A stretch of DNA of 28,245 nucleotides, taken from the UHGV virus genome UHGV-0133447. One strand, given 5' to 3'. Origin of the DNA: a virus. The notes below the pieces were generated by a model. It did no database searches, was not told the DNA's origin, and saw nothing but the letters and a program-made list of their open reading frames with translations. The translations under genes and the position numbers were made by a program. Shown in pieces: positions 4,134 through 16,389 of this stretch; positions within the stretch are counted from its first letter, which is position 1; each line of letters starts with the position of its first letter.

Positions 4134-4329
4134 CGCTGGCCCCTTTCGTGGCTTCTGCTTTACGTTCTGCCGCGGCGACGCTGGCGGCCGCCTTCTCTTC
4201 GGTGCGCTGCCGGCTGGCTTTCGCTTCTGCTTTACTGGTGCCTCGCGCATGGCCAATGCCGAACGCGCCAGCAATAGCGCCCAGAATGACAACCACCAGC
4301 CCCGCGATAGCTTCTATTCCCATGATCAT
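4048..4329 (-). CDS. putative inner-membrane spanin (Rz-like)
   Basis: 93 aa with N-terminal transmembrane segment (IAGLVVVILGAIAGAFGI) then a charged Ala/Glu/Lys-rich helical region. Start overlaps the endolysin stop (ATGA). The following lipoprotein ORF overlaps its 3' end. Confidence 0.45.
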   Translation of the reverse strand: MIMGIEAIAGLVVVILGAIAGAFGIGHARGTSKAEAKASRQRTEEKAAASVAAAERKAEATKGASDVEESVKRMGDDDVDRELREKFTRPGGG

Positions 4330-4955
4330 CCCACCAGTACCGATTTTGCTTTCAGGAATCGGGCGCGTCGGTCATCAATGCCGTTCTGCCCGCCGTTGAT
4401 AATCTGGGTCACGCGCACTAAATCTCCGTGGTATTTCAAACATCCGTTTGAGGTGTAAAACCAGGCTGCGCTGCGGGCCGCATTAATATATTTCTCCAAC
4501 AACTCAGGGTTGCTGACTAAATCCAGTTTCAGTGCATTACCGCACTTCATATAATTTTCGAGGAAGGTGATCCCGATAATTCCACGCCCGCGGTATTTCC
4601 AGCCATCGCCCGCAGCCTTATTGCCAAAACGATTGTTGTAGACGAGATTAGCGATCGCTCGTTGACGTTCGATCGGTAAAACCTTTTCGTAAGTTTTACG
4701 CCCCAGGGTGTTCGCCTGGTCCTGCGTGATGCGCTTTGCCTTCACAAAACCAGCCAGGCCGGCAACGCTATAGTTAAAACTTTCGACCATCTGGGTAAAT
4801 GACGTGCTTTCGTGTCCACACTGCGCTATGAACATCGCCTGATCGAGTGGAGCTGTAATGCCGAATTCTTTCATCGCAGCATCAATATGCGGAAACCAGC
4901 GCGCAGCTAACCCGGCGCTGATACCAGCCGCCCTTTGAAATTGTGATTGGTTCAT
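4326..4955 (-). CDS. endolysin, glycoside hydrolase family 19 (chitinase-like lysozyme)
   Basis: 209 aa with FIAQCGHESTSF-type motif and overall GH19 endolysin pattern (memory). Flanked by holin-like and spanin-like genes. Confidence 0.85.
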   Translation of the reverse strand: MNQSQFQRAAGISAGLAARWFPHIDAAMKEFGITAPLDQAMFIAQCGHESTSFTQMVESFNYSVAGLAGFVKAKRITQDQANTLGRKTYEKVLPIERQRAIANLVYNNRFGNKAAGDGWKYRGRGIIGITFLENYMKCGNALKLDLVSNPELLEKYINAARSAAWFYTSNGCLKYHGDLVRVTQIINGGQNGIDDRRARFLKAKSVLVG

Positions 4956-5233
4956 CAGTGCCTCAGTGCATCAACCAGTCGCGCCACATTCCCCCTGAAC
5001 CAGAGAACCGCGCCGCAGATAAGAATGTTAGCCAGCACCACCAGCCAGTGGGATGACTCGTACAGGCCAAACAGGAAACGGAAAGGGATGCTGGCATAAA
5101 CCAGCACCATGAGATAAGCCAGAACGGATATGCCCGGACGGTGTCTCGCACTACCTCGTTGGTAGAACATCAATGCCAGCACAATGACGGCGCAAATGAC
5201 TGCATTGGCCAGCGCTGAAGGATCATTTACCAC
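4955..5233 (-). CDS. holin-like small membrane protein
   Basis: 92 aa with three predicted hydrophobic segments and a basic C-terminus. Immediately upstream of the endolysin with a 1-nt start/stop overlap. Confidence 0.55.
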   Translation of the reverse strand: MVNDPSALANAVICAVIVLALMFYQRGSARHRPGISVLAYLMVLVYASIPFRFLFGLYESSHWLVVLANILICGAVLWFRGNVARLVDALRH

Positions 5234-5612
5234 TTGAACCTCCTCCCCGGAACCGGGTCAGCATATTGAACAAGCTATTTAGATCCTGGCTGTTGAGAAA
5301 CGTCAGAACTTTGATGATAAGCGCTGATATTAATACGGCTCCCAACGCATCAAGCGGACGGTCGCTGTAGCCAGTCCAGCTTGAAAGCTTGGAACCCACC
5401 AGACCGGCGCCCAGAACACCAACAATGAATGACGTCATAAAGTATGCCACCAGCTTACCGCGCGATATGTTAGCTGCCGTGGCCACGTAAAAAACCGCCC
5501 CGGCGAACGCACCAAATACCACGCCGTAATCTATTCCGGTAGCCAGACCGAACATGCTAGCCCCCATCAGGCCGCCGGCCGCAACTGAAGTACCAGAGAC
5601 AGGATCGGACAT
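5223..5612 (-). CDS. holin-like membrane protein (possible holin/antiholin partner)
   Basis: 129 aa, Gly/Ala-rich hydrophobic segments, GAGGGGG RBS. First gene of the lysis cassette. Confidence 0.55.
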   Translation of the reverse strand: MSDPVSGTSVAAGGLMGASMFGLATGIDYGVVFGAFAGAVFYVATAANISRGKLVAYFMTSFIVGVLGAGLVGSKLSSWTGYSDRPLDALGAVLISALIIKVLTFLNSQDLNSLFNMLTRFRGGGSSGK

Positions 5613-5657
5613 TTAGCCCCCTCTATTGCTGTGGATCCTCTCAGAACGAGGGGAAAA

Positions 5658-5671
5658 TAGGATGGCCGCCA
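5658..5671. repeat. 14-bp direct repeat copy 1 (taggatggccgcca)
   Basis: Exact 14-mer also at 6271-6284. The two copies bracket an AT-richer segment carrying the opposite-strand ORF 5855-6265. Confidence 0.7.
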
Positions 5672-5854
5672 TGTGACAGCCACCAAAAATCACTGTAAAA
5701 ATATCAGGATTCACCACCCTCTCAGACGGATTTATTCTTCTTGTTCAGTCTCGTCCGCGTACGAAGCCAAGGATGTATCCAAGACCAAAACAAGAAAAAC
5801 CGAATCCCACCACGGGTAATACTGAATAAATAAAATCAGGCATAGGGAAATCTC

Positions 5855-6265
5855 ATGGAAATTATTTCAGTAATCGGAGTGATACTGACACTGCTAGGGC
5901 TCTTTATTCCGTCACTAATCAGTAACCATTCGTCACGTAAGGCAGAGTTCAGGAAGCATTCCGCACCACTGCTGGGAAAGTTGCTAAGCGAAATTGAGGC
6001 TATTGAAGGAGGCTCTTATCCATTCAGGCTTATCAGCGATGCTGATTTCAACCAGTTGCTACCTTACGCCCCGAGGCGCAGGAAAAACGCTCTCCTTGAT
6101 GCTTACACCAGTTATCTCGACGCTCATACGATGGCCACCACGAAGCACTGGCACGATGAACATCCATCCGATGGAATGCTATTTTTCCCGACGGGTTTCT
6201 CAGTCACTAATTCAGATGAGGTACTGAAGAAAATGCAACCTCTGAAAAAAGAACTCAGCAGATAG
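5855..6265 (+). CDS. hypothetical membrane-anchored protein (136 aa), moron candidate
   Basis: N-terminal hydrophobic segment IISVIGVILTLLGLFIPSLI. AGGGAAA upstream of the ATG. Opposite strand to the late operon, in visibly AT-richer DNA bracketed by the 14-bp repeats. Confidence 0.5.
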   Translation: MEIISVIGVILTLLGLFIPSLISNHSSRKAEFRKHSAPLLGKLLSEIEAIEGGSYPFRLISDADFNQLLPYAPRRRKNALLDAYTSYLDAHTMATTKHWHDEHPSDGMLFFPTGFSVTNSDEVLKKMQPLKKELSR

Positions 6266-6270
6266 TCCTT

Positions 6271-6284
6271 TAGGATGGCCGCCA
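6271..6284. repeat. 14-bp direct repeat copy 2 (taggatggccgcca)
   Basis: Exact match to 5658-5671; lies 6 nt after the stop of ORF 5855-6265. Confidence 0.7.
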
Positions 6285-6330
6285 GATGGATTAACGACAA
6301 AGCACAGAGTGAATGATGCTCTGGTGGCAC

Positions 6331-6358
6331 AAATAAAAAAGCCATGCAAATGCATGGC
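6331..6358 (-). terminator. intrinsic terminator-like hairpin (minus strand)
   Basis: Perfect palindrome gccatgca-aa-tgcatggc (6341-6358). On the minus strand it is followed by TTTTTTATTT (complement of 6331-6340). Confidence 0.5.
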
Positions 6359-6462
6359 CTTGTGGTTTGAATCCGTTATTTACAAAATGTATTCGAGACA
6401 GTATCTTTCGACTTCCGGACAAAAAAACATATACCGGGACAAAATCTAAATGTAACTGCCTT

Positions 6463-6493
6463 GCCTGCATGAAACCATGCGGGCTTTTTTTTT
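6463..6493 (+). terminator. intrinsic terminator (plus strand)
   Basis: Stem gcctgcatg/catgcgggc (one mismatch) with loop aaac, followed by nine T (6485-6493). Confidence 0.55.
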
Positions 6494-6496
6494 GGC

Positions 6497-6522
6497 CAAA
6501 GAAAAAGCCCACCGAAGTGGGC
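6497..6522 (-). terminator. intrinsic terminator (minus strand) with UUCG-type tetraloop
   Basis: Minus-strand reading ggcccac-ttcg-gtgggc followed by TTTTCTTTGG. Lies downstream of the TerB-like gene. Confidence 0.5.
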
Positions 6523-6896
6523 CTTACAGCTATCATCATTTTTTATTAGGTGTGGTGCCGGGTGCCTCCCGGTAAGTCGCCGCCAGTCCACAGACGACTC
6601 GCAATGCGCAAAAAAACATATCAGACTGGCAATGCCCCTCCGCATAGGGGGATTCACCACACGGATAATTTAGGATGTAGTCATAGGCGGCGTCAATAAC
6701 TGACACTCTGTCAAAGGCATCATTACGATGCCTTTTGCACAGTGCTAATCACTGGATCTAATAAGGGGCCAGAGCAAAGCGATTACCCCGGCTACCAGCA
6801 CGCCATCAGCCAGGATTGACATCATTTTGCTGGTGAAGTCGATAGCAACCACCAGAAACAAAAGCACCCCGGCTGCGGCCCAGCGAAGTTTACCGA

Positions 6897-7322
6897 TCAC
6901 AGGTACTGGTCCAGAGGAAGTTGCAGAGCCTGGGCAATTTTCTTCAGCTGTTTCTCTTCTTCTTCCCCGATGCCGTCGTTATCAGCTACATCAAGACACA
7001 GGCAAAGAACATCGACAGCGTCATCCGTCCCGGCAACGTCAGCCAGTTCGCGCAACGCCTGAGCGTTGGCTGAACGTGGTGATGCTTCATAGCGAGCGCG
7101 AATATTCGAACTCATCTGGGCAATTTCACCAGCAAATGGCGCGAATGCCGGGAGGGCCGAAATAGTCTTCTCCAGCACTGCAATCTCTTTTGCATCGCAG
7201 GTACCATCGGCGTATGCAATCGAGTACGCTCCCCAGACCGTGGCTTCTACGGCATCGCGGTTTTCCATTTTTTTTACTTCAACAACGGCTTTACGGGCTT
7301 TCTTTTTAAAAATACCGAACAT
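6897..7322 (-). CDS. TerB-like domain protein (tellurite-resistance TerB fold), moron candidate
   Basis: Using the ATG for MFGIFKKK...: two acidic motifs (AYADGTCDAKEIAVLEK and VADNDGIGEEEEKQLKKIAQAL) matching the TerB pattern from memory. The track ORF extends to 7403 with an alternative upstream start. Confidence 0.5.
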   Translation of the reverse strand: MFGIFKKKARKAVVEVKKMENRDAVEATVWGAYSIAYADGTCDAKEIAVLEKTISALPAFAPFAGEIAQMSSNIRARYEASPRSANAQALRELADVAGTDDAVDVLCLCLDVADNDGIGEEEEKQLKKIAQALQLPLDQYL

Positions 7323-7341
7323 AATTACGTCTCTCTTTAGT

Positions 7342-7404
7342 GGTGAGCCAACGCTCAGGGATGGTAACCACAAGGCGACGTAATACCGTCCCTCTTGGCT
7401 CACC
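7342..7404 (-). promoter_or_regulatory. long composite hairpin in the leader of the TerB-like gene
   Basis: Outer 10-bp stem ggtgagccaa (7342-7351) / ttggctcacc (7395-7404). Inner 8-bp stem agggatgg (7357-7364) / ccgtccct (7386-7393) with one wobble. Sits between the HNH-AP2 stop and the TerB-like start. Confidence 0.35.
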
Positions 7405-7453
7405 CTGAAAAGTTGTGGTTTTGATTTTTCCGCCGAGCGAGGCGGCTATGAGC

Positions 7454-7954
7454 TTAAATAGATGAAAAATCACCATGGTACTGCCTGGAAGCAGCTACAT
7501 ACGCCCTGTGCGCTTCTTCTTTAGTGTGGAAGCGACCAAGTCGAATTTTTTTCTTTGCAATACTTATTTGCGCAATCCATTTTTTTCTATTGCGGGGGGA
7601 ATCGTTGAAATAGACCCCTTTAAGTCCAGCTGCGTTATTGCTGTGTATCCGTCGATTGCGAGTGTTCTGGTTTTGTGTGCAGAGCCTGAGATTTGTAATA
7701 CGGTTATTCAACTTGTCGCCATCAATATGATCAACAACAAGGGTTGACGGAATTTCACCGTATTTCAAGACCCAAATTATTCGGTGCACACGTATATTCT
7801 TTCCATTGAAGAATACCCTTAAATACCCAGTATCAGTCTTGACGCCAAGAGTGTCGCCAGGACTTTTACTCCCAAAAGGTGACTTGCAATAAAGGATGCC
7901 CGTAGTTTCATCGTATGAAAAAAAGTTCCTAACCGTTTCAAGAGATAGATTCAT
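7454..7954 (-). CDS. HNH homing-type endonuclease with C-terminal AP2-like DNA-binding domain
   Basis: 166 aa. HNH core VVDHIDGDKLNNRITNLRLCTQNQN. C-terminal GVYF...KKWIAQISIAKKKIRLGRFHTKEEAHRAYVAASRQYHGDF resembles AP2 domains (memory). AGGAG RBS. Gene is visibly AT-richer than its flanks. Confidence 0.8.
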   Translation of the reverse strand: MNLSLETVRNFFSYDETTGILYCKSPFGSKSPGDTLGVKTDTGYLRVFFNGKNIRVHRIIWVLKYGEIPSTLVVDHIDGDKLNNRITNLRLCTQNQNTRNRRIHSNNAAGLKGVYFNDSPRNRKKWIAQISIAKKKIRLGRFHTKEEAHRAYVAASRQYHGDFSSI

Positions 7955-8008
7955 GCCTACTCCTGGTATGGGTCCTGTGCTTAAATAACGCCGAGCGTGG
8001 CGCAGATA

Positions 8009-8033
8009 CGAAAAAGGCCCGCGAATGCGAGCC
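8009..8033 (-). terminator. intrinsic terminator-like hairpin (minus strand) upstream of the HNH-AP2 gene
   Basis: Minus-strand reading ggctcgc-attc-gcgggcc (7-bp stem, one G-U pair) followed by TTTTTCG. Confidence 0.45.
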
Positions 8034-8246
8034 TGATGGATCCGCTTACTGATACGGAGCGACCAACCTAAGTTGTCGCAGATTCAAATTGTGGCCCTGC
8101 CTTTAAGTCACTTTGCGCGCAGCTGGGACATGTAGTTTTCGCATCGTGATCGGGATTCGCTTCAGACGCTGGCCCCGCAGCCATTTAAGTGCCGGTTACG
8201 TTTATCCGGCGGCTTTCGCCCGGTTAAGCCCTAAGGTAAGGGATTT

Positions 8247-8393
8247 GGTTGTGACACCAGGCCGTTACGCCTGCTTACTTCCTGCCGCTCTGTTTTGGTA
8301 TTGGCCGCCAGTAACTGCGACTCAGCCGATTTACAGGTCTTTGCGTCGGCCGGCGCTGCAGCCCACTTGAGCACATCACAACGGAAAGAGCGC
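8247..8393 (-). ncRNA. candidate structured tRNA-like element, copy A (degenerate)
   Basis: Minus-strand leader gcgctctttccgttgtgat resembles the leaders at 21901 and 22159. gttgtga can pair with tcacaac about 130 nt downstream to close the element. Contains gcgccggccgacg internal motif. Region 8036-8505 has no credible ORF. Confidence 0.3.
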
Positions 8394-8505
8394 TTAGTGC
8401 ATTTAAGCCAAACCCCATGTAGGAAGCACTCTTACCTGTTGTGCGCTCCGTTTCGTGGAGCAGACGCCGCCGGAATCGCACCGGCAGAATCATCACATTG
8501 GTATA

Positions 8506-8581
8506 TGGTGCTGGTTGACGGAATCGAACCGCCGACATCCTGCTTACAAGGCAGGCGCTCTACCAGCTGAGCTAAACCAGC
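8506..8581 (-). tRNA. tRNA-Thr (anticodon UGU), phage-encoded
   Basis: Minus-strand 76-nt cloverleaf GCTGGTT-TA-GCTC-AGCTGGTA-GAGC-G-CCTGC-CTTGTAA-GCAGG-ATGTC-GGCGG-TTCGATT-CCGTC-AACCAGC-A-CCA. Acceptor 7 bp, D-loop GG, anticodon loop with U33 and A37, canonical T-loop, encoded CCA. Confidence 0.8.
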
Positions 8582-9621
8582 AAATTACGCATTTCACTGA
8601 CCGTCTGTTCAAATCTCTCGGTTTCCAGTTCGACACCTAGTCCCCTTCGCCCGAGAAGAGCAGCCTGCTTGAGCGTTGAGCCTGATCCAAAAAAGAAATC
8701 AGCTACAACATCACCCGGGCGGCTACTCGCTGTGATTATCTGCTCCAGCATATCCGCAGGCTTTTCACATGGGTGTTTACCTGGATAAAACTGAACAGGC
8801 TTATGAGTCCAGACGTCGGTATATGGCACCGTGACCGATACGCTGAATGGTCGCCGTAAACGGTAATATTCCTGCTGGAGTTCAGAATATTTTCGGCTTA
8901 ACGATTGCCAGGTGCCGACAAGCTGGTGGTGAGGTTTTCCCAGTTCGTTGCGTGAGTGCTTATCCATGGCGATTGTTTGAAACAAAGCCTGCAACTTTAA
9001 ATAATCGGCTTCGTTCGGTAGCTGCCACTGACTAAGGCCAAACCAGTGGGAAACCATATTTTTCTTACCTGTGGCTTCTGCAATCTGAGCCGACGTCACG
9101 CCAAGAGATTCCCGTGCATCACGGAAGTAAGAAATTAAAGGCGTCATGACGTGTTGCTTTAACTCATTACACTTTGCGGCATATCCATCGTCTTTGGGCC
9201 TGTATGGCCCCTGATAATGGTCGGCAAAAATGATACGCTCAGTGGCCGGGAAATAAGCGCGTAAGCTCTCCTTATTGCAGCCGTTCCATCGCCCTGATGG
9301 CTTAGCCCAGATGATATGGTTGAGCAGGTTAAACCGCTCTCTCACCAACAGCTCAATATCCGCTGCCAGGCGGTGCCCACAGAACAGATACATGCTGCCG
9401 GCAGGTTTTAACACTCGCCAGAACTGTGCCAGACAGCTATCCAGCCAACGTAAATAGTCTTCGTCCCCCTTCCATTGGTTATCCCAGCCGTTTGGCTTCA
9501 CCTTAAAATAAGGCGGATCGGTAACAATAAGATCAATGGAGTTATCGGGTAGCGATGGGAGGTATTGCAGGCAATCAGCATTGATTAACTCAATACTGGA
9601 TATTTTTACAGTATTTTTCAT
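8572..9621 (-). CDS. orphan DNA methyltransferase, N6-adenine/N4-cytosine (beta) class
   Basis: 349 aa with TDPPYF catalytic motif near the N-terminus. No adjacent restriction endonuclease. The ORF's last codons overlap the 5' end of the tRNA. Confidence 0.85.
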   Translation of the reverse strand: MKNTVKISSIELINADCLQYLPSLPDNSIDLIVTDPPYFKVKPNGWDNQWKGDEDYLRWLDSCLAQFWRVLKPAGSMYLFCGHRLAADIELLVRERFNLLNHIIWAKPSGRWNGCNKESLRAYFPATERIIFADHYQGPYRPKDDGYAAKCNELKQHVMTPLISYFRDARESLGVTSAQIAEATGKKNMVSHWFGLSQWQLPNEADYLKLQALFQTIAMDKHSRNELGKPHHQLVGTWQSLSRKYSELQQEYYRLRRPFSVSVTVPYTDVWTHKPVQFYPGKHPCEKPADMLEQIITASSRPGDVVADFFFGSGSTLKQAALLGRRGLGVELETERFEQTVSEMRNLLV

Positions 9622-9770
9622 AGATCAGTAAGCGTAACTCTGATAGGCTCACTTTGCTTTTGCGCTAAAGCAGTGGGCCGTGGTTAGCTTGTGACCTGAA
9701 AGCATGAGCTGATGGCTGGCCGGGTGCTACAACACCCACCAGCCGCCCATTTTCACAGCAAAAGCCCCCA

Positions 9771-9992
9771 TTACTGGAGGCGCTTATAACATCCGAACTG
9801 ATAATCAGATAACCCCGCCATTACCAGCTGCGTAAGTATGAGCTGGCAGCGTTCGCGGCTCAGGTGAGTATTCTGAGCAATCTCCCCAGCCGTAGCCGGT
9901 TTGTCACTTAACTCATCAAAAACAGCCTTGGCTGTTTCCGTCATATCTTGCTGATTTAGCATGTCTTTTATCTCAAATAAGTGGTGTGACAT
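9771..9992 (-). CDS. small winged-helix-like DNA-binding protein (hypothetical; PapI/FaeA-like fold only suspected)
   Basis: 73 aa from the ATG (MSHHLFEIK...); the track's longer ORF starts at a TTG. Segment ATAGEIAQNTHLSRERCQLILTQLVMAGL has an HTH-like pattern. First ORF downstream of the late promoter/terminator. Confidence 0.35.
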   Translation of the reverse strand: MSHHLFEIKDMLNQQDMTETAKAVFDELSDKPATAGEIAQNTHLSRERCQLILTQLVMAGLSDYQFGCYKRLQ

Positions 9993-10063
9993 ACAGATAA
10001 CTCTGGTGACGGTATCCAGCAAGAACTAATTGAAAGAGAAGAAGATTTTATCGATTTTATCCC

Positions 10064-10089
10064 ATAAAAAAACCCGCTCGCTGGCGGGT
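10064..10089 (-). terminator. intrinsic terminator just downstream of the putative late promoter (tR'-like)
   Basis: Minus-strand reading acccgc-cagcga-gcgggt followed by seven T (complement of 10066-10072). Confidence 0.5.
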
Positions 10090-10127
10090 TAATCAACGTT
10101 GAACATACAAAGCCCATCGTTATAAAT

Positions 10128-10156
10128 AAAATTACACAAAAGCGGCAACTTTGCAA
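10128..10156 (-). promoter_or_regulatory. candidate late promoter (PR'-like) immediately downstream of Q
   Basis: Minus-strand TTGCAA (10151-10156), 17-nt spacer, TAATTT (10128-10133). About 40-60 nt upstream of the terminator at 10064-10089, analogous to the lambda PR'-tR' arrangement. Confidence 0.35.
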
Positions 10157-10172
10157 GTAACGTGTCGCTAAA

Positions 10173-11003
10173 TTATGCGATATTTATCAAATCAGGCACC
10201 TTTGTCACACGTTTAAGCTGTGAGTCGGTATAACTCTCTTCCTCAAAGCATCTTGTAACCAGACTTTCATAGAAAGGTTTCCAGCTATATCGCCAGGTAC
10301 GTTCTGGCAGACCAGGCAGCTCAGAGAGCATACCCCTGTATGCATTCGAAGACTTAGGACGACTATAACCGCGGCCTTCACAACGTTTACACACTTTGTA
10401 GACAGGCACTCCCTGCAGCTCTGACTCTTTACGGTCCAGGGTTTTTCCCGTACCGCCACACTGGCATCGCTTGCTGATTTTCCCGGTGCCGCCACATTTG
10501 AAGCAAAGAACATGGTCAACCTCTTCCACCTGACGTTTTACTTCAAAATCCGAAGGTGACTGCCTGAGGTCTTTTGCCCATTGCGGTAATCTCATTGTGT
10601 AGTGGCTTTTTTCCACCATTGAGGTTTTTTTTATGAAGCCTGAACCAGAACACTTCCTGCAATCTACGCTGTCAGCTGCAGACGAGGCATAGTCGTTATA
10701 AGCGAACCGAGCTATTATCAGCATACACAGCGGGAACTTCTTCCCTGCTGCTTTTCTTATCGATCGAGGCGCTTTTGATTTTGCATATTCAGCCAACCAA
10801 CTGACGGATGCCTTTCTGTCGTGTTCGCTGATTCCAGCTTTACCCAAAAACATTGACAGGCCTATTCCTGCCTCTGCCTGTGTCATCCCCAGAGCCGCCA
10901 TTACATCTGTCACAGTAAGTTGCTCGCTGGCGGTTGCAAGACCGCTATCGGAAATATGCATTCCTTTGGGCGCAAAAAATTTGGGAATTGATTCAATATT
11001 CAT
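10173..11003 (-). CDS. late-gene antitermination protein Q-like (Cys-rich, zinc-binding type)
   Basis: Repeated Cys pairs CRKCSGSG / CFKCGGTGK / CQCGGTGK / CKRCEGRG. Position directly upstream of promoter plus terminator and adjacent to DUF968 resembles Qin-type Q (memory). ATG at 11003 has a GGAG RBS; the track's GTG at 11021 is an alternative start. Confidence 0.65.
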   Translation of the reverse strand: MNIESIPKFFAPKGMHISDSGLATASEQLTVTDVMAALGMTQAEAGIGLSMFLGKAGISEHDRKASVSWLAEYAKSKAPRSIRKAAGKKFPLCMLIIARFAYNDYASSAADSVDCRKCSGSGFIKKTSMVEKSHYTMRLPQWAKDLRQSPSDFEVKRQVEEVDHVLCFKCGGTGKISKRCQCGGTGKTLDRKESELQGVPVYKVCKRCEGRGYSRPKSSNAYRGMLSELPGLPERTWRYSWKPFYESLVTRCFEEESYTDSQLKRVTKVPDLINIA

Positions 11004-11021
11004 GCTCAGTACTCCATACAC

Positions 11022-12077
11022 TCAAGCTTTTACAATGACGCCGATACCCATTACCCGATCCAGAAAACGAGCCCACAGCTCTAACTGAGTGCCATATTTC
11101 TTTTCGAACTCTGATGTATTGGCGTGTAATTCATCGTGATGCACTCTGCACAGTGGTATCACGAAGAGATCATGGGCCTTGGTGCCAGTTCCCCCCAGAC
11201 CATTCCCTATTATATGGTGTGGATCGTCTGAAGGTTGCCTACAGCATTCACATGGCTGAGTTTTAACCCAACGTGTGTAAACTTCGCAGGTCCAGCGCCG
11301 GCGCTTTGGGCGGCGCATAAATGATTCGGGGCTGTTCGGATCGACACTAAGCCTCAGAATGGGTTTACTTTCAATCTGAGGTTGCTCAATGAGTACACTG
11401 GCGTCCGCCAGGTCTATGCCCTCGACAAGATCCTGAAGGATTTCACCTGCAGCTAATGACGGGACAATATCGCTATCCTTATAAACGGACAGGAAAGGTT
11501 CCTCAGGCAGTCTTAAGGCCTGTTGCGCCATCGTCTCGGTTATTGCGTCAGCAATGCCGGATTTCACGGCCCACCAGCAGAGCTCCGCCATCGATAATTC
11601 GCGCTCCTTATTGTATCCAAGGCTGATCAACACCCTTTCAATCACCCACTGAACCAGATTCTGATAAGCCAGCTCTGACAACATTTCGGTGGTCTGCTCA
11701 CGTAATTCATTATCACAATGCCAGCAGACAACCATGGCGCCAGGCGGATGCCGCATAGTCACTAATTCATGGTGGTGATAGTGGGAATGCGGGTACTGGC
11801 ACTCTCTGACATGTCGTAGAAGCCAGGCCTCAAGAGCGTTAATTCCACCAGCTGCGTTAATAACCCTCTCATCCCTCATGAAAAAACGCAGAATGTCCAT
11901 TTCTGCAAGCGGCTGACGTGCATCGGCGATCCGCCCAGTGGGCAGTGTTTTCATCTTCTCTGGCTGGCGCTCTATCAGGACACGACCGCCGGTAAAGAGA
12001 GACATCAATTCGCGGCCTGGTTTAAAAAGAACAACGCCCAGGCGCGGAACAATTTCCGGAGTTAGCAATGCCCGCAC
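11022..12077 (-). CDS. DUF968-family phage protein (YdfU-like) with C-terminal HNH-like Cys/His motif
   Basis: 351 aa from a GTG start. C-terminal CECC...DPHHII...IPLCRVHHDELH motif. Length and position before Q resemble YdfU of lambdoid prophages (memory). Confidence 0.6.
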   Translation of the reverse strand: MRALLTPEIVPRLGVVLFKPGRELMSLFTGGRVLIERQPEKMKTLPTGRIADARQPLAEMDILRFFMRDERVINAAGGINALEAWLLRHVRECQYPHSHYHHHELVTMRHPPGAMVVCWHCDNELREQTTEMLSELAYQNLVQWVIERVLISLGYNKERELSMAELCWWAVKSGIADAITETMAQQALRLPEEPFLSVYKDSDIVPSLAAGEILQDLVEGIDLADASVLIEQPQIESKPILRLSVDPNSPESFMRRPKRRRWTCEVYTRWVKTQPCECCRQPSDDPHHIIGNGLGGTGTKAHDLFVIPLCRVHHDELHANTSEFEKKYGTQLELWARFLDRVMGIGVIVKA

Positions 12078-12085
12078 AATACCCC

Positions 12086-12610
12086 CTAAACAGTCAGATC
12101 TTTAAGCTTCTGCACGGCTTTTCCAACTTCAGCCATAGCATCTACGAACTCGTCAAACTTCCTGCTGGCCATTCCATATGCCTGGAGAATCTCCAACTTC
12201 AAGGGATCGAGCTGTTTCTTAATTTCTGCACGATCCCCGGCTTTTTTCTCCGCTTCCTCTGCCGCTTTGATCAAGGCGTCGGCCTGTTTACGTAATGCTT
12301 CCGGAGTTACTTCGAGCTGTTTATTCATTTTGCATTCCATCGTCGGCTGAGGAGGTCTCATTACAGGCGCCACAGATTTGTGACCATATTTAGGGTGGTG
12401 CAAGGTAGTAGACCTTCCATCATCTATCACGCAGAGCAGCCCGCTTTCCCGGATAATATCAATCAGAGTCTCTTTGTCTTTTCGATTGAGCCCGCTATAT
12501 GCCGCCACTTTGTGCGTCAGGTGGGTTAGCGTTGCGCCTTCTGGTTGCTTCTCTACAAAACGCTTTACCCTGGAGAGAACTGGTTGCAGGTGTGGAGGTG
12601 TCATTCTCAT
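12086..12610 (-). CDS. hypothetical protein with C-terminal coiled-coil
   Basis: ATG at 12608-12610 preceded by AAGGGG; the track start at 12616 is a GTG. No family recognised. Confidence 0.45.
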   Translation of the reverse strand: MRMTPPHLQPVLSRVKRFVEKQPEGATLTHLTHKVAAYSGLNRKDKETLIDIIRESGLLCVIDDGRSTTLHHPKYGHKSVAPVMRPPQPTMECKMNKQLEVTPEALRKQADALIKAAEEAEKKAGDRAEIKKQLDPLKLEILQAYGMASRKFDEFVDAMAEVGKAVQKLKDLTV

Positions 12611-12619
12611 GTTCACCCC

Positions 12620-13450
12620 TTACTGCGTGACAACGCCAATGAGCTTTAAAAGCTCAGGAAATTTCGATTCGAAGAAGTGCGGTTGCGTCTCACGTGGATT
12701 TGCCGGGCTGGTGATGTTTTTACCGTACAGACAACCTTTTGCCGTAACAGACCAGAATCTTTTCACGCCATTGATACCCGTTCGGCTGCGGCGCTCCTTC
12801 TGCTCGACTATGCCGTGACCAGCCATAAGGTGATAAGCCTGGTTCGCGGTCATTCTGATGTTGTTAGCTTTAAGCAAAGCGCTAAGAGACAGCGTTGGTC
12901 TGCTGGAACCATCCTGCGCGCCAGCTGGTGCATCAATGGCATATGAAGGCATTAAATCAGGCAGCCCTGCTACCTGCTGAAGCTTCTGATATGCCCCGAG
13001 CTTTGACGAATTAGAGAGATTGAGCATTTTGGATGCAGATTCCAGGAGGATTATGCCAGCCTGAATGCGATCGGTATTGACGGTTGCAGCCCCAGCAGTG
13101 TGGAGCGCGTCAAACGTTCTGATGACCTTCAGATTAAAAACAGCGCTGATCCACATCGCGTAGGCATACACCAACTCACGGCAAACATAGGTACCTTGCT
13201 CATTTCCGCCGCGGATGACACTTACAGGTTCTGAAATATCCGAGTTGCTATTTTGCAACTCGCCTATCAATTGCGCAGTTTGTTCGTTACGGAGCCAGAA
13301 TGCAGGCTTATGGCGGTCAAGGGAGCCGGAAGCACGATGGAGATCGTTTAGGCAATAACGACCAAGGACATCACGACGAACAGAAATACCATCAATAACA
13401 AAAAAAGTGTGATTATTGGATGCAGCAGCACCCATGACGTGGTTAGTCAT
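12620..13450 (-). CDS. KilA-N domain protein (antirepressor-like)
   Basis: N-terminal FFVIDGISVRRDVLGRYCLNDLHRASG...KPAFWLRNEQTAQLI matches the KilA-N pattern (memory). ATG at 13450 has a GGAG RBS; the track start 13462 lacks one. Confidence 0.7.
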   Translation of the reverse strand: MTNHVMGAAASNNHTFFVIDGISVRRDVLGRYCLNDLHRASGSLDRHKPAFWLRNEQTAQLIGELQNSNSDISEPVSVIRGGNEQGTYVCRELVYAYAMWISAVFNLKVIRTFDALHTAGAATVNTDRIQAGIILLESASKMLNLSNSSKLGAYQKLQQVAGLPDLMPSYAIDAPAGAQDGSSRPTLSLSALLKANNIRMTANQAYHLMAGHGIVEQKERRSRTGINGVKRFWSVTAKGCLYGKNITSPANPRETQPHFFESKFPELLKLIGVVTQ

Positions 13451-13538
13451 AGCTTTCTCCATACATTTTTATGTGACGAAGGGCCTGCACGCCCGTTTCG
13501 TTTGCACCCTTTGAGATTACTGGCAAGTTGCATAGACT

Positions 13539-13937
13539 TCAACCTACCACTGAACAAACATCCAGCGTTTTTTTATACGCCGATATGGTGATTTCTACCC
13601 GCCCGCCTTTAACATTCTCACCCCACTCTATAGCCATGCGCTTTACCTGGTTGTCGTCCTCCCAGATACCGGCATAAGTCAAAGCATCAAGAAGTGCCTT
13701 GTTGTAATTGTCCAGGTCACGCCGGCGATAGTCTGGCGGATAGAGAATAATTTCTACAGCTGCTGGCGCGGTAGATGGTTTTGGTATTGCACGCAGTTGC
13801 TCAATGATCGCTGAACGTACTGCATGTTTGAATTTACGGCCGGCTGCGCTGACAAGGTGTTTACCTTTTGCGGGCCCCTTATTTGGGGACCGCCAGTAGG
13901 TGTTCACGCTGGGTGGGAATGGAAGAATAAATTTCAT
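13539..13937 (-). CDS. rusA: Holliday-junction resolvase RusA
   Basis: 132 aa. N-terminal MKFILPFPPSVNTYW plus acidic catalytic region typical of RusA. Start overlaps the upstream stop (ATGA). Confidence 0.9.
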   Translation of the reverse strand: MKFILPFPPSVNTYWRSPNKGPAKGKHLVSAAGRKFKHAVRSAIIEQLRAIPKPSTAPAAVEIILYPPDYRRRDLDNYNKALLDALTYAGIWEDDNQVKRMAIEWGENVKGGRVEITISAYKKTLDVCSVVG

Positions 13938-14410
13938 TCTGCCTCCAGCACTATTTTCAACTCAAACGGAACATCTCCTCCGCAATAGCAGAGCGGGCCA
14001 AGGTCAGACATGAGGCTCCACAGGGTCATTGACGTATAGCCATTTTCGTCTGTTATCGGGGGCGAAAAGTCTCCGAAGATCGCCGGGTGCTGGATTCGAT
14101 TCTCTTCGTGCTGGCTTCTCAAGTAACTTAGAGCTTCGGCAGTAAGTTTCACTTTTACGATGCTGTTGAGATTGACCGATATTTCTCTGGCCAACAGCGA
14201 AGAGGTGATACTGATACCGCGAGAAACCCCGCGGGTAATCTTGATGGCCCCTTTTCTCTCCAGCGCCTTGAGGTGCGTTGCTGCTGCATTGGGGGACCGG
14301 CACCCCAGCATGCCGGTCAGTTCGTAAGTTGTAGGCGGAAAACCATGTTTACGCTGATATTCGATCAGGAGGTCAAGGACCTCCTGCTGCCTTAAGGTCA
14401 AGGAAGTCAT
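13934..14410 (-). CDS. LexA-type N-terminal DNA-binding domain protein lacking the S24 peptidase domain
   Basis: From ATG 14410: MTSLTLRQQEVLDLLIEYQRKHGFPPTTYELTGMLGCRSPNAAATHLKALERKGAI closely follows the LexA DNA-binding-domain pattern. The ~90-aa C-terminal part has no Ser/Lys peptidase motifs. Start overlaps the C5-MTase stop (ATGA). Confidence 0.6.
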   Translation of the reverse strand: MTSLTLRQQEVLDLLIEYQRKHGFPPTTYELTGMLGCRSPNAAATHLKALERKGAIKITRGVSRGISITSSLLAREISVNLNSIVKVKLTAEALSYLRSQHEENRIQHPAIFGDFSPPITDENGYTSMTLWSLMSDLGPLCYCGGDVPFELKIVLEAE

Positions 14411-16389
14411 GCTGCCTGCTCCTCTCTGTTCACGCACATTTCGGGTAAGTTGGCGCGTACCAGCGCTTCGGCGAACGGCGGCGGGACGGCATTGCCACAG
14501 CGCGCGACCTGCTTATCTTTCGCGTATTTCACGCCGCGGTAATCCTGGTCAATGATGTACCACTCCGGAAAGCCCTGCGCCCGATAGAGCTCGTGCGGCT
14601 GCAGCATGCGCATGCCGATATCAACGATGCGGTAAGTCACTCCGCCGATTTCCACCAGCCCGGTGCATTCCTCTCCGCAGTATTCCTGCAGGAACGACAG
14701 CACCTGCTGCGCTCGCTCTTCGTCATAGTCCTCGACCGCCAGAGTCGTTTTAACCTCCCCTACATGCTGGCCACCGGCAGTGATAGTCGGCATCGGCTCG
14801 TCAGTTCGCTGGCCATCGCGGCAGGTTCCGCGCAGCTTAACCAGATGAGAAGCGACTAATGCATGGTGATCGACAGTCGTTACTGAATGCGCTGGCTCAT
14901 CCAGCCCCACGCCAGCGCCCTGATAATTCCCTCCGTAGTGTTTTGCCAGGAACGCACCAACTACAGCATGTTTCCCGCCACCAGCCACAACGGTGCCCAG
15001 CGGCTTATCCAGTCCTGGCACGCGAGGTGCCTGTCCTGGCCGTTCCCCGTATCCCATTTGAATGAGCGTCGGCACAACCAGCTGCGATTTACCTCCGCCG
15101 CCCGCGGTGATTGTTGCGCTAGGCTCATCCGCCCGGTGTCCGATGCTGGCGCCGAACTGCCGGGCGATAACCGGAGCGACGACACAGGCGCGCGATTCTT
15201 TCAGGATGGTGTGAGCGGGTTTATCGAGCGGGCGTGGTTTAGCCTGGTACTCGCTGCCGCCATTGCCAGCCAGGAACGGCGCCAGCTCTGCTTCAACAAT
15301 ACCCAGAGCGTGACCATTCCCGCCCGGGCGTTTTGCGGTACCGGCCGTCACCGTCGGCAACGGATCGGTGACTTCCTGCCCGGTAGCTCCAGTTCGGAAT
15401 TTTGTCAGATGAGGTACCGCAATTGCGTAGCCGTGGGTTTTCGTAATCGTCTGTAGCGGATCGTCCAGCGCCTGTCCCCGGAAACAGTCGTATTTGCCGC
15501 GTGTCGTTGTGTGATTGCACTTCACGATGAACGGCGAAGCGCTTTCGATAACAAAGCGCTGAATGCCGCGGGCAATCCGTTTTAGCGTATTCTCTGCCAG
15601 TGACTTTTTGCGACCGAAGATGCTCGGCGCGGGGATTGACCAGTCTATGCATTCCGCAGCTGTACGCCACGGCTCAAGCTGGCCCGCCAGCACGGCGGCA
15701 GACTTCGGATCCCCGTGCGTGGCTTCCGGCCAGACTATCAGTTTCCCGTCCCGGCGCATCACCATGAAGAACCGCTTACGGATGGTCGGCGCGCCATAAT
15801 CGCAGGCGCGCAGCTCGCGAAAATCGACGACATAACCCAGCCCGGCAATTAAGCGCTTGGCCTGCTCGCTATCCGGTGAAAACTCCAGAAACTCGCAACA
15901 CTCCACCAGTGCAGGATGATCTGCTGGAATACCGGTGGTAAGCATCCCGACAAATGCATTGAAAGTTTCACCGATGCGTGCCGGATCCGGTCGCATTTCT
16001 GCCGCGAGTAACGGACCCCACGTCTTAAACTCTTCGACGTTTTCCAGCATCATGACTCGCGGGCCAACATCCAGCGCCCAACGAATGACGATCCATGCCA
16101 GCCCTCGAATAGCTTTCTCTACTGGTTTAGCACCTTTCGCTTTAGAAAAGTGACGACAGTCAGGCGAGAACCATGCCAGGCCGACAGGCTTGCTACTGGT
16201 AGCGGCTAATGGGGATACATCAAACACACTTTCGCAATAGTGAAGCGTGTCGGGATGGTTAGTGCGGTGCATAGCAACGGCGTTAACATCGTGGTTAATA
16301 GCGATATCAACACTGCGCCCTATTGCCAGTTCAATACCTGTACTGGCTCCACCGCCGCCAGCGAAATTATCGACAATAATCTCACGCAT
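14407..16389 (-). CDS. DNA (cytosine-5)-methyltransferase with long repeat-containing variable region
   Basis: 660 aa. DNFAGGGG (motif I), SPDCRHFS (catalytic Cys), MMLENVEEF (ENV), C-terminal QGFP and GNAV motifs. The intervening ~250 aa carries about six related modules of the form P-x-x-T-I/V-T-A-G-G. GAGGGGG RBS. Confidence 0.8.
   Translation of the reverse strand: MREIIVDNFAGGGGASTGIELAIGRSVDIAINHDVNAVAMHRTNHPDTLHYCESVFDVSPLAATSSKPVGLAWFSPDCRHFSKAKGAKPVEKAIRGLAWIVIRWALDVGPRVMMLENVEEFKTWGPLLAAEMRPDPARIGETFNAFVGMLTTGIPADHPALVECCEFLEFSPDSEQAKRLIAGLGYVVDFRELRACDYGAPTIRKRFFMVMRRDGKLIVWPEATHGDPKSAAVLAGQLEPWRTAAECIDWSIPAPSIFGRKKSLAENTLKRIARGIQRFVIESASPFIVKCNHTTTRGKYDCFRGQALDDPLQTITKTHGYAIAVPHLTKFRTGATGQEVTDPLPTVTAGTAKRPGGNGHALGIVEAELAPFLAGNGGSEYQAKPRPLDKPAHTILKESRACVVAPVIARQFGASIGHRADEPSATITAGGGGKSQLVVPTLIQMGYGERPGQAPRVPGLDKPLGTVVAGGGKHAVVGAFLAKHYGGNYQGAGVGLDEPAHSVTTVDHHALVASHLVKLRGTCRDGQRTDEPMPTITAGGQHVGEVKTTLAVEDYDEERAQQVLSFLQEYCGEECTGLVEIGGVTYRIVDIGMRMLQPHELYRAQGFPEWYIIDQDYRGVKYAKDKQVARCGNAVPPPFAEALVRANLPEMCVNREEQAA

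Follow-up and report, generated by a model that had tools for sequence, protein, structure and literature searches.

The interval between Q and the lysis genes of a lambdoid Klebsiella prophage has the scaffold of the Stx2c toxin locus with non-toxin cargo

In phage lambda, AACGAT is a −10-like element that pauses the sigma-70 holoenzyme and lets the late antiterminator Q load. The lambda late promoter PR' consists of TTGACT, 17 nt, TAAATT, 6 nt and the pause element AACGATGGG; it gives a short RNA of 194 nt, it is followed by a terminator, and only ~680 bp, without accessory genes, lie between Q and S. In Stx phages the Q-to-lysis interval exceeds 6.7 kb. Their PR' is constitutive, and its transcription is terminated in lysogeny (PMC7547250). 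In the Escherichia coli phage Stx2c_PV98-693 (LC727876), one finds successively a DUF968 gene, Q (PF03589), PR' with the same pause element, the terminator tR', an open reading frame (ORF) of 141 amino acids (aa), a winged-helix ORF, a methyltransferase, tRNAs, stx2A, stx2B, a small RNA (sRNA) of the STnc100 family and nanS-p. We analysed the corresponding interval in the UHGV virus genome UHGV-0133447, a stretch of 28,245 nt (hereafter, the window) that corresponds to a lambdoid Klebsiella prophage whose late transcript runs from high to low coordinates. An earlier note on this DNA had likened the interval to the toxin locus of Stx phages, with other cargo in place of the toxin. The comparison revealed a likeness stronger than the note proposed: the Stx2c phage has the same scaffold in the same order, and for this reason we regard the resemblance, as judged from the sequences, as shared ancestry and not just analogy. 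The interval is probably the leader of the late operon. Several independently mobile cargo modules would have gathered there, in a hotspot already known from the space that separates Q/PR'/tR' from the holin, and their late expression would be driven by Q.

The Q gene (10173-11021, minus strand) was matched by PF03589 (152 bits), by PHROG 127 (E 2e-94) and by the PDB entry 7ubm (E 2.2e-42), which is lambda Q in the structure of the Q-loaded complex. The two Q proteins are homologous (30% identity), but lambda Q lacks a segment of ~55 aa (residues ~129-184) that is inserted in the protein of the window. This insert has extra CxxCxGxG zinc-finger repeats resembling, with sub-threshold scores, the central domain of DnaJ, and it is common to the whole PF03589-type group that we sampled. 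The late promoter PR' (10113-10156, minus strand) is located directly 3' of the Q stop codon. It has a −35 element TTGCAA (10156-10151), a spacer of 16 nt, a −10 element TAATTT (10134-10129), and, after 7 nt, a pause element (10121-10113) identical to that of lambda. Matching elements were found 3' of Q in mEp460, in Klebsiella phage 5 LV-2017 and in the Stx2c phage. More generally, ACGATGG occurs 22-81 nt after Q in 37 of the 76 species-representative loci of this Q family, the background rate being 0.016 per 250 nt. As in lambda, the promoter is followed by a terminator. This tR' (10064-10090, minus strand) has a hairpin (10090-10071, AACCCGCCAGCGAGCGGGTT) with a GC-rich stem of 7 bp that begins ~22 nt past the pause element and is followed by U7 (−14.1 kcal/mol, z = −2.5). 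The AACCCGCC...GCGGGTTTTTTT hairpin after PR' is conserved in many relatives. Constitutive transcription from PR' would stop there, giving a short RNA of ~55-60 nt, much shorter than that of lambda. The assignment of Q, already made in the earlier note, and the position of PR'/tR' are well supported, because the homology of Q, the alignment of PR' with that of lambda, and the conservation of the layout in relatives all point the same way.

The region initially transcribed from PR' and tR' are near-identical in the window and in the Stx2c phage. The winged-helix ORFs of the two share 53% aa identity and the methyltransferases 77%, against only 35% for the Q proteins. The two loci differ in their tRNAs, which are tRNA-Met(CAU, an ARAGORN call) and tRNA-Arg(UCU) in the Stx2c phage, but a single tRNA-Thr(UGU) in the window. 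They differ also in the cargo that follows, which in the former consists of stx2A (RIP domain) and stx2B (SLT_beta), with nanS-p after them, and in the latter of an HNH gene, a TerB-like gene and a DUF3927 gene located after the tRNA and before STnc100. We detected no RIP or SLT_beta domain in any ORF of the interval and found no toxin gene there, in agreement with the description of this cargo in the note as DNA modification and TerB-like. The scaffold for toxin expression of Stx2c phages (Q, PR'/tR', winged-helix ORF, methyltransferase, tRNA, slot, STnc100) is thus in circulation among Klebsiella prophages too, where its cargo is not a toxin. The “toxin slot” is therefore a general and exchangeable cargo position, which gives context for judging the ease with which cargo moves among enterobacterial phages. 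All the modules were known before, as was the hotspot itself, and the genome of a near-identical phage is publicly available.

The window has a run of minus-strand genes from ~20 kb to 212, in the order cytosine methylase, LexA-like ORF, RusA, KilA-N, DUF968, Q, cargo interval, two holins, GH19 endolysin, HNH gene, TerS and TerL. The cargo consists, in the direction of transcription, of the winged-helix ORF, the methyltransferase, tRNA-Thr(UGU), a terminator (8034-8015), the HNH gene, the TerB-like gene, DUF3927, STnc100, a terminator (6361-6338) and a plus-strand ORF, which is followed by the first holin. All cargo ORFs are co-stranded with Q and with the genes for lysis and terminase, with the exception of the plus-strand ORF (5855-6265). 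The note had correctly placed an orphan methyltransferase, a tRNA, an HNH gene and a TerB-like gene between the late promoter and the lysis cassette, and all are on the minus strand. Its list holds, although it omitted the winged-helix ORF, DUF3927, STnc100, the antisense ORF, and the stop codon of the methyltransferase inside the tRNA. The upper part of the interval it delimited (6266-10172) stands, but the lower end has to be moved to 5613, which brings in the antisense ORF. The distance from the Q stop to the start of the first holin (at 5612) is thus 4,560 nt. We located a lysis gene in 61 species-representative loci of the Q family. It is separated from Q by a median of 1,582 nt and by 3,922 nt at most, figures that are approximate since they rest on the set of lysis-protein queries that we chose. 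The interval of the window is longer than in all of them, and to call it “packed” was fair for this Q family, although that of Stx phages is larger. None of the 80 loci of the family that we scanned carries the methyltransferase module and the TerB module together.

The relatives of the window carry these modules in different combinations. The closest one, Kp4866-6 (OK490421), has 98-99% nucleotide identity with the window at 8577-14100 and 6634-8253, covering Q, PR', the winged-helix ORF, the methyltransferase, HNH, TerB-like and DUF3927. It lacks a 323-bp segment with the tRNA, which makes its methyltransferase 11 codons longer, and a 978-bp segment carrying the antisense ORF. In the lysis genes, its identity to the window is only 64-84%. 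The phages LMessi and 5 LV-2017, like the window, have TerB-like and DUF3927 genes (90-96% aa identity) immediately upstream of the Phage_holin_8, holin_3_7 and GH19 genes. The pair is found directly after Q/tR' in LMessi and after the same tRNA-Thr and terminator in 5 LV-2017. Both phages lack the methyltransferase, the winged-helix ORF, the HNH gene and the antisense ORF, and their intervals span ~1-1.4 kb. In mEp460 and in the prophage of strain Nissle 1917, nothing but the winged-helix ORF and the methyltransferase separates Q from the holin. Finally, the winged-helix ORF, the methyltransferase, the tRNA, TerB and DUF3927 are stacked in two IMG/VR contigs, and a third contig, truncated upstream of the methyltransferase, shows the same order from this gene on.

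The HNH gene (7454-7954, minus strand) is encoded in a cassette (7431-8002) of ~558 bp bounded by an imperfect direct repeat of 14 nt (CGCCGAGCGAGGCG at 7431-7444 and CGCCGAGCGTGGCG at 7989-8002). It resembles homing endonucleases (HNH_3, 74 bits; PHROG 99, E 1e-62; homing endonuclease models of PADLOC). The earlier note had named it an HNH-AP2 endonuclease: the HNH part of that name is borne out, but the AP2 domain scored 30.1 bits, under the cutoff of 33.3 bits. Phages 5 LV-2017 and LMessi have the uninterrupted site with a single copy of the repeat. No match to the HNH gene covering at least 50% of the query was found with tblastn in the two IMG/VR contigs encoding Q, the winged-helix ORF, the methyltransferase, the tRNA, TerB and DUF3927, nor was there an HNH match in the truncated contig. 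Given these relatives with a single repeat copy and without the gene, HNH looks like a mobile element and a recent insertion. In the record of Kp4866-6 the gene reads as frameshifted.

The first module of the interval pairs a small winged-helix ORF with a methyltransferase. The former (9771-9992, minus strand; the mechanical ORF starts at the TTG at 10022) matches PHROG 331 (E 3e-33) and, weakly, DprA_WH. It is upstream of the methyltransferase in mEp460, in the Nissle prophage, in the Stx2c phage and in many other loci, and it was always found paired with it. Its stop codon overlaps a terminator-like hairpin of moderate strength (9764-9781, minus strand; −14.4 kcal/mol, U-tract of 4). The methyltransferase (8572-9621, minus strand; 349 aa) is an orphan N6-adenine DNA methyltransferase of the M.EcoGII family (PF01555, 139 bits) with the order of motifs of the beta class, i.e., DPPY at residues 35-38 and FxGxG at 310-314. 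It is identical to M.EcoGII at 266 of 350 positions over the full length (76%, an approximate value since the M.EcoGII sequence was taken from the machine-read text of the PMC11551740 supplement), and 77-79% identical to the enzymes of Stx2c/Stx2a phages, phiP27, SfV and mEp460. With tblastn we found matches to it, recorded without their genetic context, in the records of 94 phages, among them SfV, phage cdtI and numerous Stx2a, Stx2c and Stx2d phages. The label “orphan” is correct because we found no restriction-enzyme gene adjoining the methyltransferase, whose neighbours are the winged-helix ORF and the tRNA; the nearby HNH gene is missing from most relatives that carry it. M.EcoGII and M.EcoGI of E. 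coli O104:H4 are, like the enzyme of the window, orphan beta-class methyltransferases of 349 aa encoded in prophages (PMC5778455). M.EcoGII, which methylates adenine whatever the sequence context, is silent in lysogens and harmful when expressed constitutively (PMC5778455), and its homologues are inactive in O111 lysogens (PMC6602927). The methyltransferase of the window is probably also non-specific. The locus is useful to annotate M.EcoGII-like methylases as late genes.

The methyltransferase ends inside the following gene, a tRNA-Thr(UGU) with an encoded CCA (8506-8581, minus strand; ARAGORN; Rfam RF00005, 74 bits). The first 10 nt of the tRNA (8572-8581) hold the last three codons of the methyltransferase and its stop codon, the TAG corresponding to positions 8-10 of the tRNA. 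The junction encodes ...EMRNLLV and the stop within GCTGGTTTAGC. The tRNA is identical at 74 of 76 nt to that of Klebsiella phage 5 LV-2017, and its core was found in 63 IMG/VR contigs, where lysis genes of several types, whenever detected, are always downstream and on the same strand. In 11 of the 53 contigs with sufficient upstream sequence, the TAG internal to the tRNA ends an ORF that contains DPPY and has 300 codons or more (~350), and one further such ORF is cut by the edge of the locus. Four contigs without the methyltransferase retain a ...MRNLLV remnant before the tRNA. An exact 30-mer of the junction had no match in IMG/VR, perhaps owing to two differing bases in the D-loop of the tRNA, and it was the search with the tRNA core that found the junction. 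The arrangement is found in the Klebsiella/Enterobacter lineage, whereas the methyltransferase of the Stx2c phage ends 40 nt before the first tRNA. One could imagine that the overlap is a brake on dosage and not an accident: RNase P would remove the stop codon, leaving a non-stop mRNA whose product would be tagged by tmRNA and degraded, thereby capping a toxic, non-specific methylase. We consider this unlikely. ACA makes up 15% of the threonine codons in 20 genes of the window, which gives no clear case for or against a need for the tRNA.

The note had also mentioned several intrinsic terminators, and we retained five credible ones on the late strand (10090-10071, 9781-9764, 8034-8015, 6525-6504 and 6361-6338). 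The one after the tRNA segment (8015-8034) has a stem of 8 bp (−21.1 kcal/mol, z = −3.9) and is 95% conserved in phage 5 LV-2017. The hairpin at 6338-6361, between STnc100 and the antisense ORF, is bidirectional (−17.9 kcal/mol and z = −3.5 on the minus strand). A sixth terminator (5684-5661) is weaker, and a seventh match inside the TerB-like gene (7029-7014) is probably due to chance. The raw count of terminators shows a modest excess within the interval (9 vs 5.2 ± 2.7 in shuffled sequences), and amounts to 16 vs 5.9 ± 2.5 in the region 5000-11200. The internal terminators are credible because of their placement at gene boundaries and their conservation, three of them being kept in relatives.

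One of these terminators (6525-6504) belongs to an sRNA of the STnc100 family (6494-6691, minus strand; RF02076, 100.7 bits for a gathering score of 47, E 1e-21). The family is also present in Kp4866-6 and, just downstream of stx2B, in the Stx2c phage (149 bits). An STnc100 element has been described 75 nt downstream of stx2 (PMC12370729). We surveyed the loci of the Q family with an nhmmer profile and found STnc100-like matches downstream of Q and on the same strand in 12 of 80. Two to four tandem copies occur downstream of Q in three loci of Enterobacter and Phytobacter (L016, L021, L082). A candidate sigma-70 promoter, TTGACG-18-TAAATT (6696-6667), is located just upstream of the sRNA of the window. 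It shares the −10 hexamer of lambda PR' and would give a terminated RNA of ~170 nt, an arrangement resembling that of lambda 6S, and in some loci STnc100 is only ~250-300 nt away from Q. These features would suit a locus in which the true late promoter is in or near STnc100 (6696-6494) and the genes between Q and STnc100 form the tail end of the early operon, like a nin region. Yet, the pause element adjoins Q and not STnc100, its position is conserved, and no AACGAT-like element was found in the STnc100 region. Furthermore, STnc100 is downstream of stx2B in Stx2 phages (PMC12370729), yet stx is driven there from the PR' adjacent to Q (PMC7547250). This reading is thus highly improbable. We rejected STnc100 as the real short transcript of PR' on two of these grounds, the pause element next to Q and the position downstream of stx2B.

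If the interval is a late leader controlled by Q, as we favour, PR' (10156-10113) would fire constitutively in the lysogen, and the polymerase would halt at tR' (10090-10064), producing only a short RNA. Upon induction, Q would load onto the polymerase paused at AACGAT, which, thus modified, would no longer stop at tR' or at the four or five terminators inside the interval. The single long transcript would include the winged-helix ORF, the methyltransferase, tRNA-Thr, HNH, TerB-like, DUF3927 and STnc100, and would cross the plus-strand ORF in antisense before entering the genes for holin, endolysin and terminase. The likely payoff would be to restrict an adenine methylase, toxic and probably non-specific, to the late phase, when it could methylate the DNA of the progeny against host restriction. 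The tRNA, HNH and TerB/DUF3927 would be passenger modules, the last occupying the slot that stx2AB has in Stx2c phages. The sequences themselves show which genes are present, the elements of promoter, pause and terminator with their conservation, the scaffold common to the window and Stx2c phages, and the modular gain or absence of the cargo. We infer the Q-dependent read-through of the internal terminators from homology, and we also infer the dependence of cargo expression on Q, the specificity of the methyltransferase and any function of TerB/DUF3927.

This interpretation has to be weighed against one in which the cargo genes are classical morons, expressed in the lysogen from their own promoters, ended by their own terminators, and independent of Q, with the internal terminators marking separate units. 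Several gene boundaries do carry terminators, TerB and DUF3927 are filed under “moron” in PHROGs, and the antisense ORF must be autonomous. The interval, however, contains six promoter-like sites for 5.7 ± 2.4 in shuffled sequences, an absence of excess that counts for expression by Q. No sigma-70-like site was found on the late strand upstream of the winged-helix ORF, the methyltransferase, HNH or TerB; besides the site at STnc100, the only other match on the minus strand is weak (9/12) and lies inside HNH. The overlap between the methyltransferase and the tRNA makes a terminator or a promoter between them impossible, and in LMessi the TerB/DUF3927 pair directly follows tR', with no space for a separate unit. 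The silence of methyltransferases of the M.EcoGI/II type in lysogens (PMC5778455, PMC6602927) also argues against morons. The sRNA is a different matter, since lysogens of other species, namely enterohaemorrhagic E. coli and Salmonella, transcribe their copies of STnc100 without induction (PMC5331693, PMC10794520). STnc100 and the antisense ORF may be autonomous, a status that is unsupported for the other cargo genes, and as an account of the interval the moron reading is unlikely.

Several points nevertheless weigh against a purely Q-driven late operon. From the transcription of STnc100 in uninduced lysogens, together with the TTGACG-18-TAAATT site, it follows that this sRNA probably has its own promoter and is not purely dependent on Q. 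The tRNA could have an internal promoter within the methyltransferase gene that a simple scan would miss. Early transcripts that start upstream of Q could extend into the interval and contribute to the expression of the cargo. The antisense ORF must have its own promoter, and could, with its two plus-strand terminators, impede late transcription. Finally, the 76% identity with M.EcoGII is insufficient, and the specificity of that enzyme cannot be assumed for the methyltransferase of the window.

The TerB-like gene (6897-7322, minus strand) probably starts at the ATG at 7322, rather than at the GTG at 7403 of the mechanical ORF (6897-7403). It passed the cutoff of PF05099 (29.2 vs 24.4 bits) with a match that spans only positions 64-106 of the 118 of the profile, and it matches PHROG 632 (E 7e-64, residues 28-168). 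The protein is 95% identical to those of phages LMessi and 5 LV-2017. The names “TciA-like / tellurite resistance” and “TciB-like” are annotation transfer only: our literature search on TciA/TciB returned nothing usable, only unrelated Trypanosoma papers and annotations of P1 plasmids. The stop of this gene overlaps the start of the next, which encodes a small membrane protein with DUF3927 (6745-6900, minus strand; PF13064, 52 bits; PHROG 1470, E 2e-22). Between the stop codon of the latter and STnc100 there is a very stable hairpin without U-tract (6705-6745, minus strand; −23.1 kcal/mol, z = −5.1).

The antisense ORF (5855-6265, plus strand; 136 aa), between STnc100 and the holin, encodes a protein that has a transmembrane helix at its N-terminus; an HWHD motif is conserved in it, and three histidines are invariant. 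The two plus-strand terminators are the bidirectional hairpin described above and a second one at 6463-6484 (−15.8 and −17.9 kcal/mol on this strand). The protein had no match in Pfam, PHROG, NCBIfam or PADLOC, and tblastn found none in 50,697 phage records. Its homologues form 23 clusters, from Enterobacterales wherever the source names the organism, and constitute a small unannotated family. In prophages of Leclercia, Salmonella and Mixta the ORF is likewise placed between Q and the holin and oriented antisense, beside different Q families and lysis cassettes. An AF2 model of the protein (mean pLDDT of 84) gave nothing at E ≤ 0.001 in a Foldseek search of the PDB. The single borderline match in BFVD, an unnamed protein of 223 aa (Q8W646; E 9e-4, TM 0.62), could not be interpreted. 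A perfect direct repeat of 14 nt (TAGGATGGCCGCCA, at 5658-5671 and 6271-6284) brackets the ORF and may mark the junctions of an inserted segment.

The lysis cassette (4326-5612, minus strand) comprises Phage_holin_8 (5223-5612), Phage_holin_3_7 (4955-5233) and a GH19 endolysin (4326-4955), as identified with Pfam and PHROG. In the early region we observed a second methyltransferase of 660 aa (13934-16389, minus strand) that overlaps the ORF resembling the DNA-binding domain of LexA. It is apparently of the cytosine-5 type, judging from its translation, inspected by eye, and from two Salmonella loci (L009 and L010) whose ORFs at the corresponding position are annotated as PF00145. With the late adenine methylase, the phage would carry two different DNA methylases under different temporal control.

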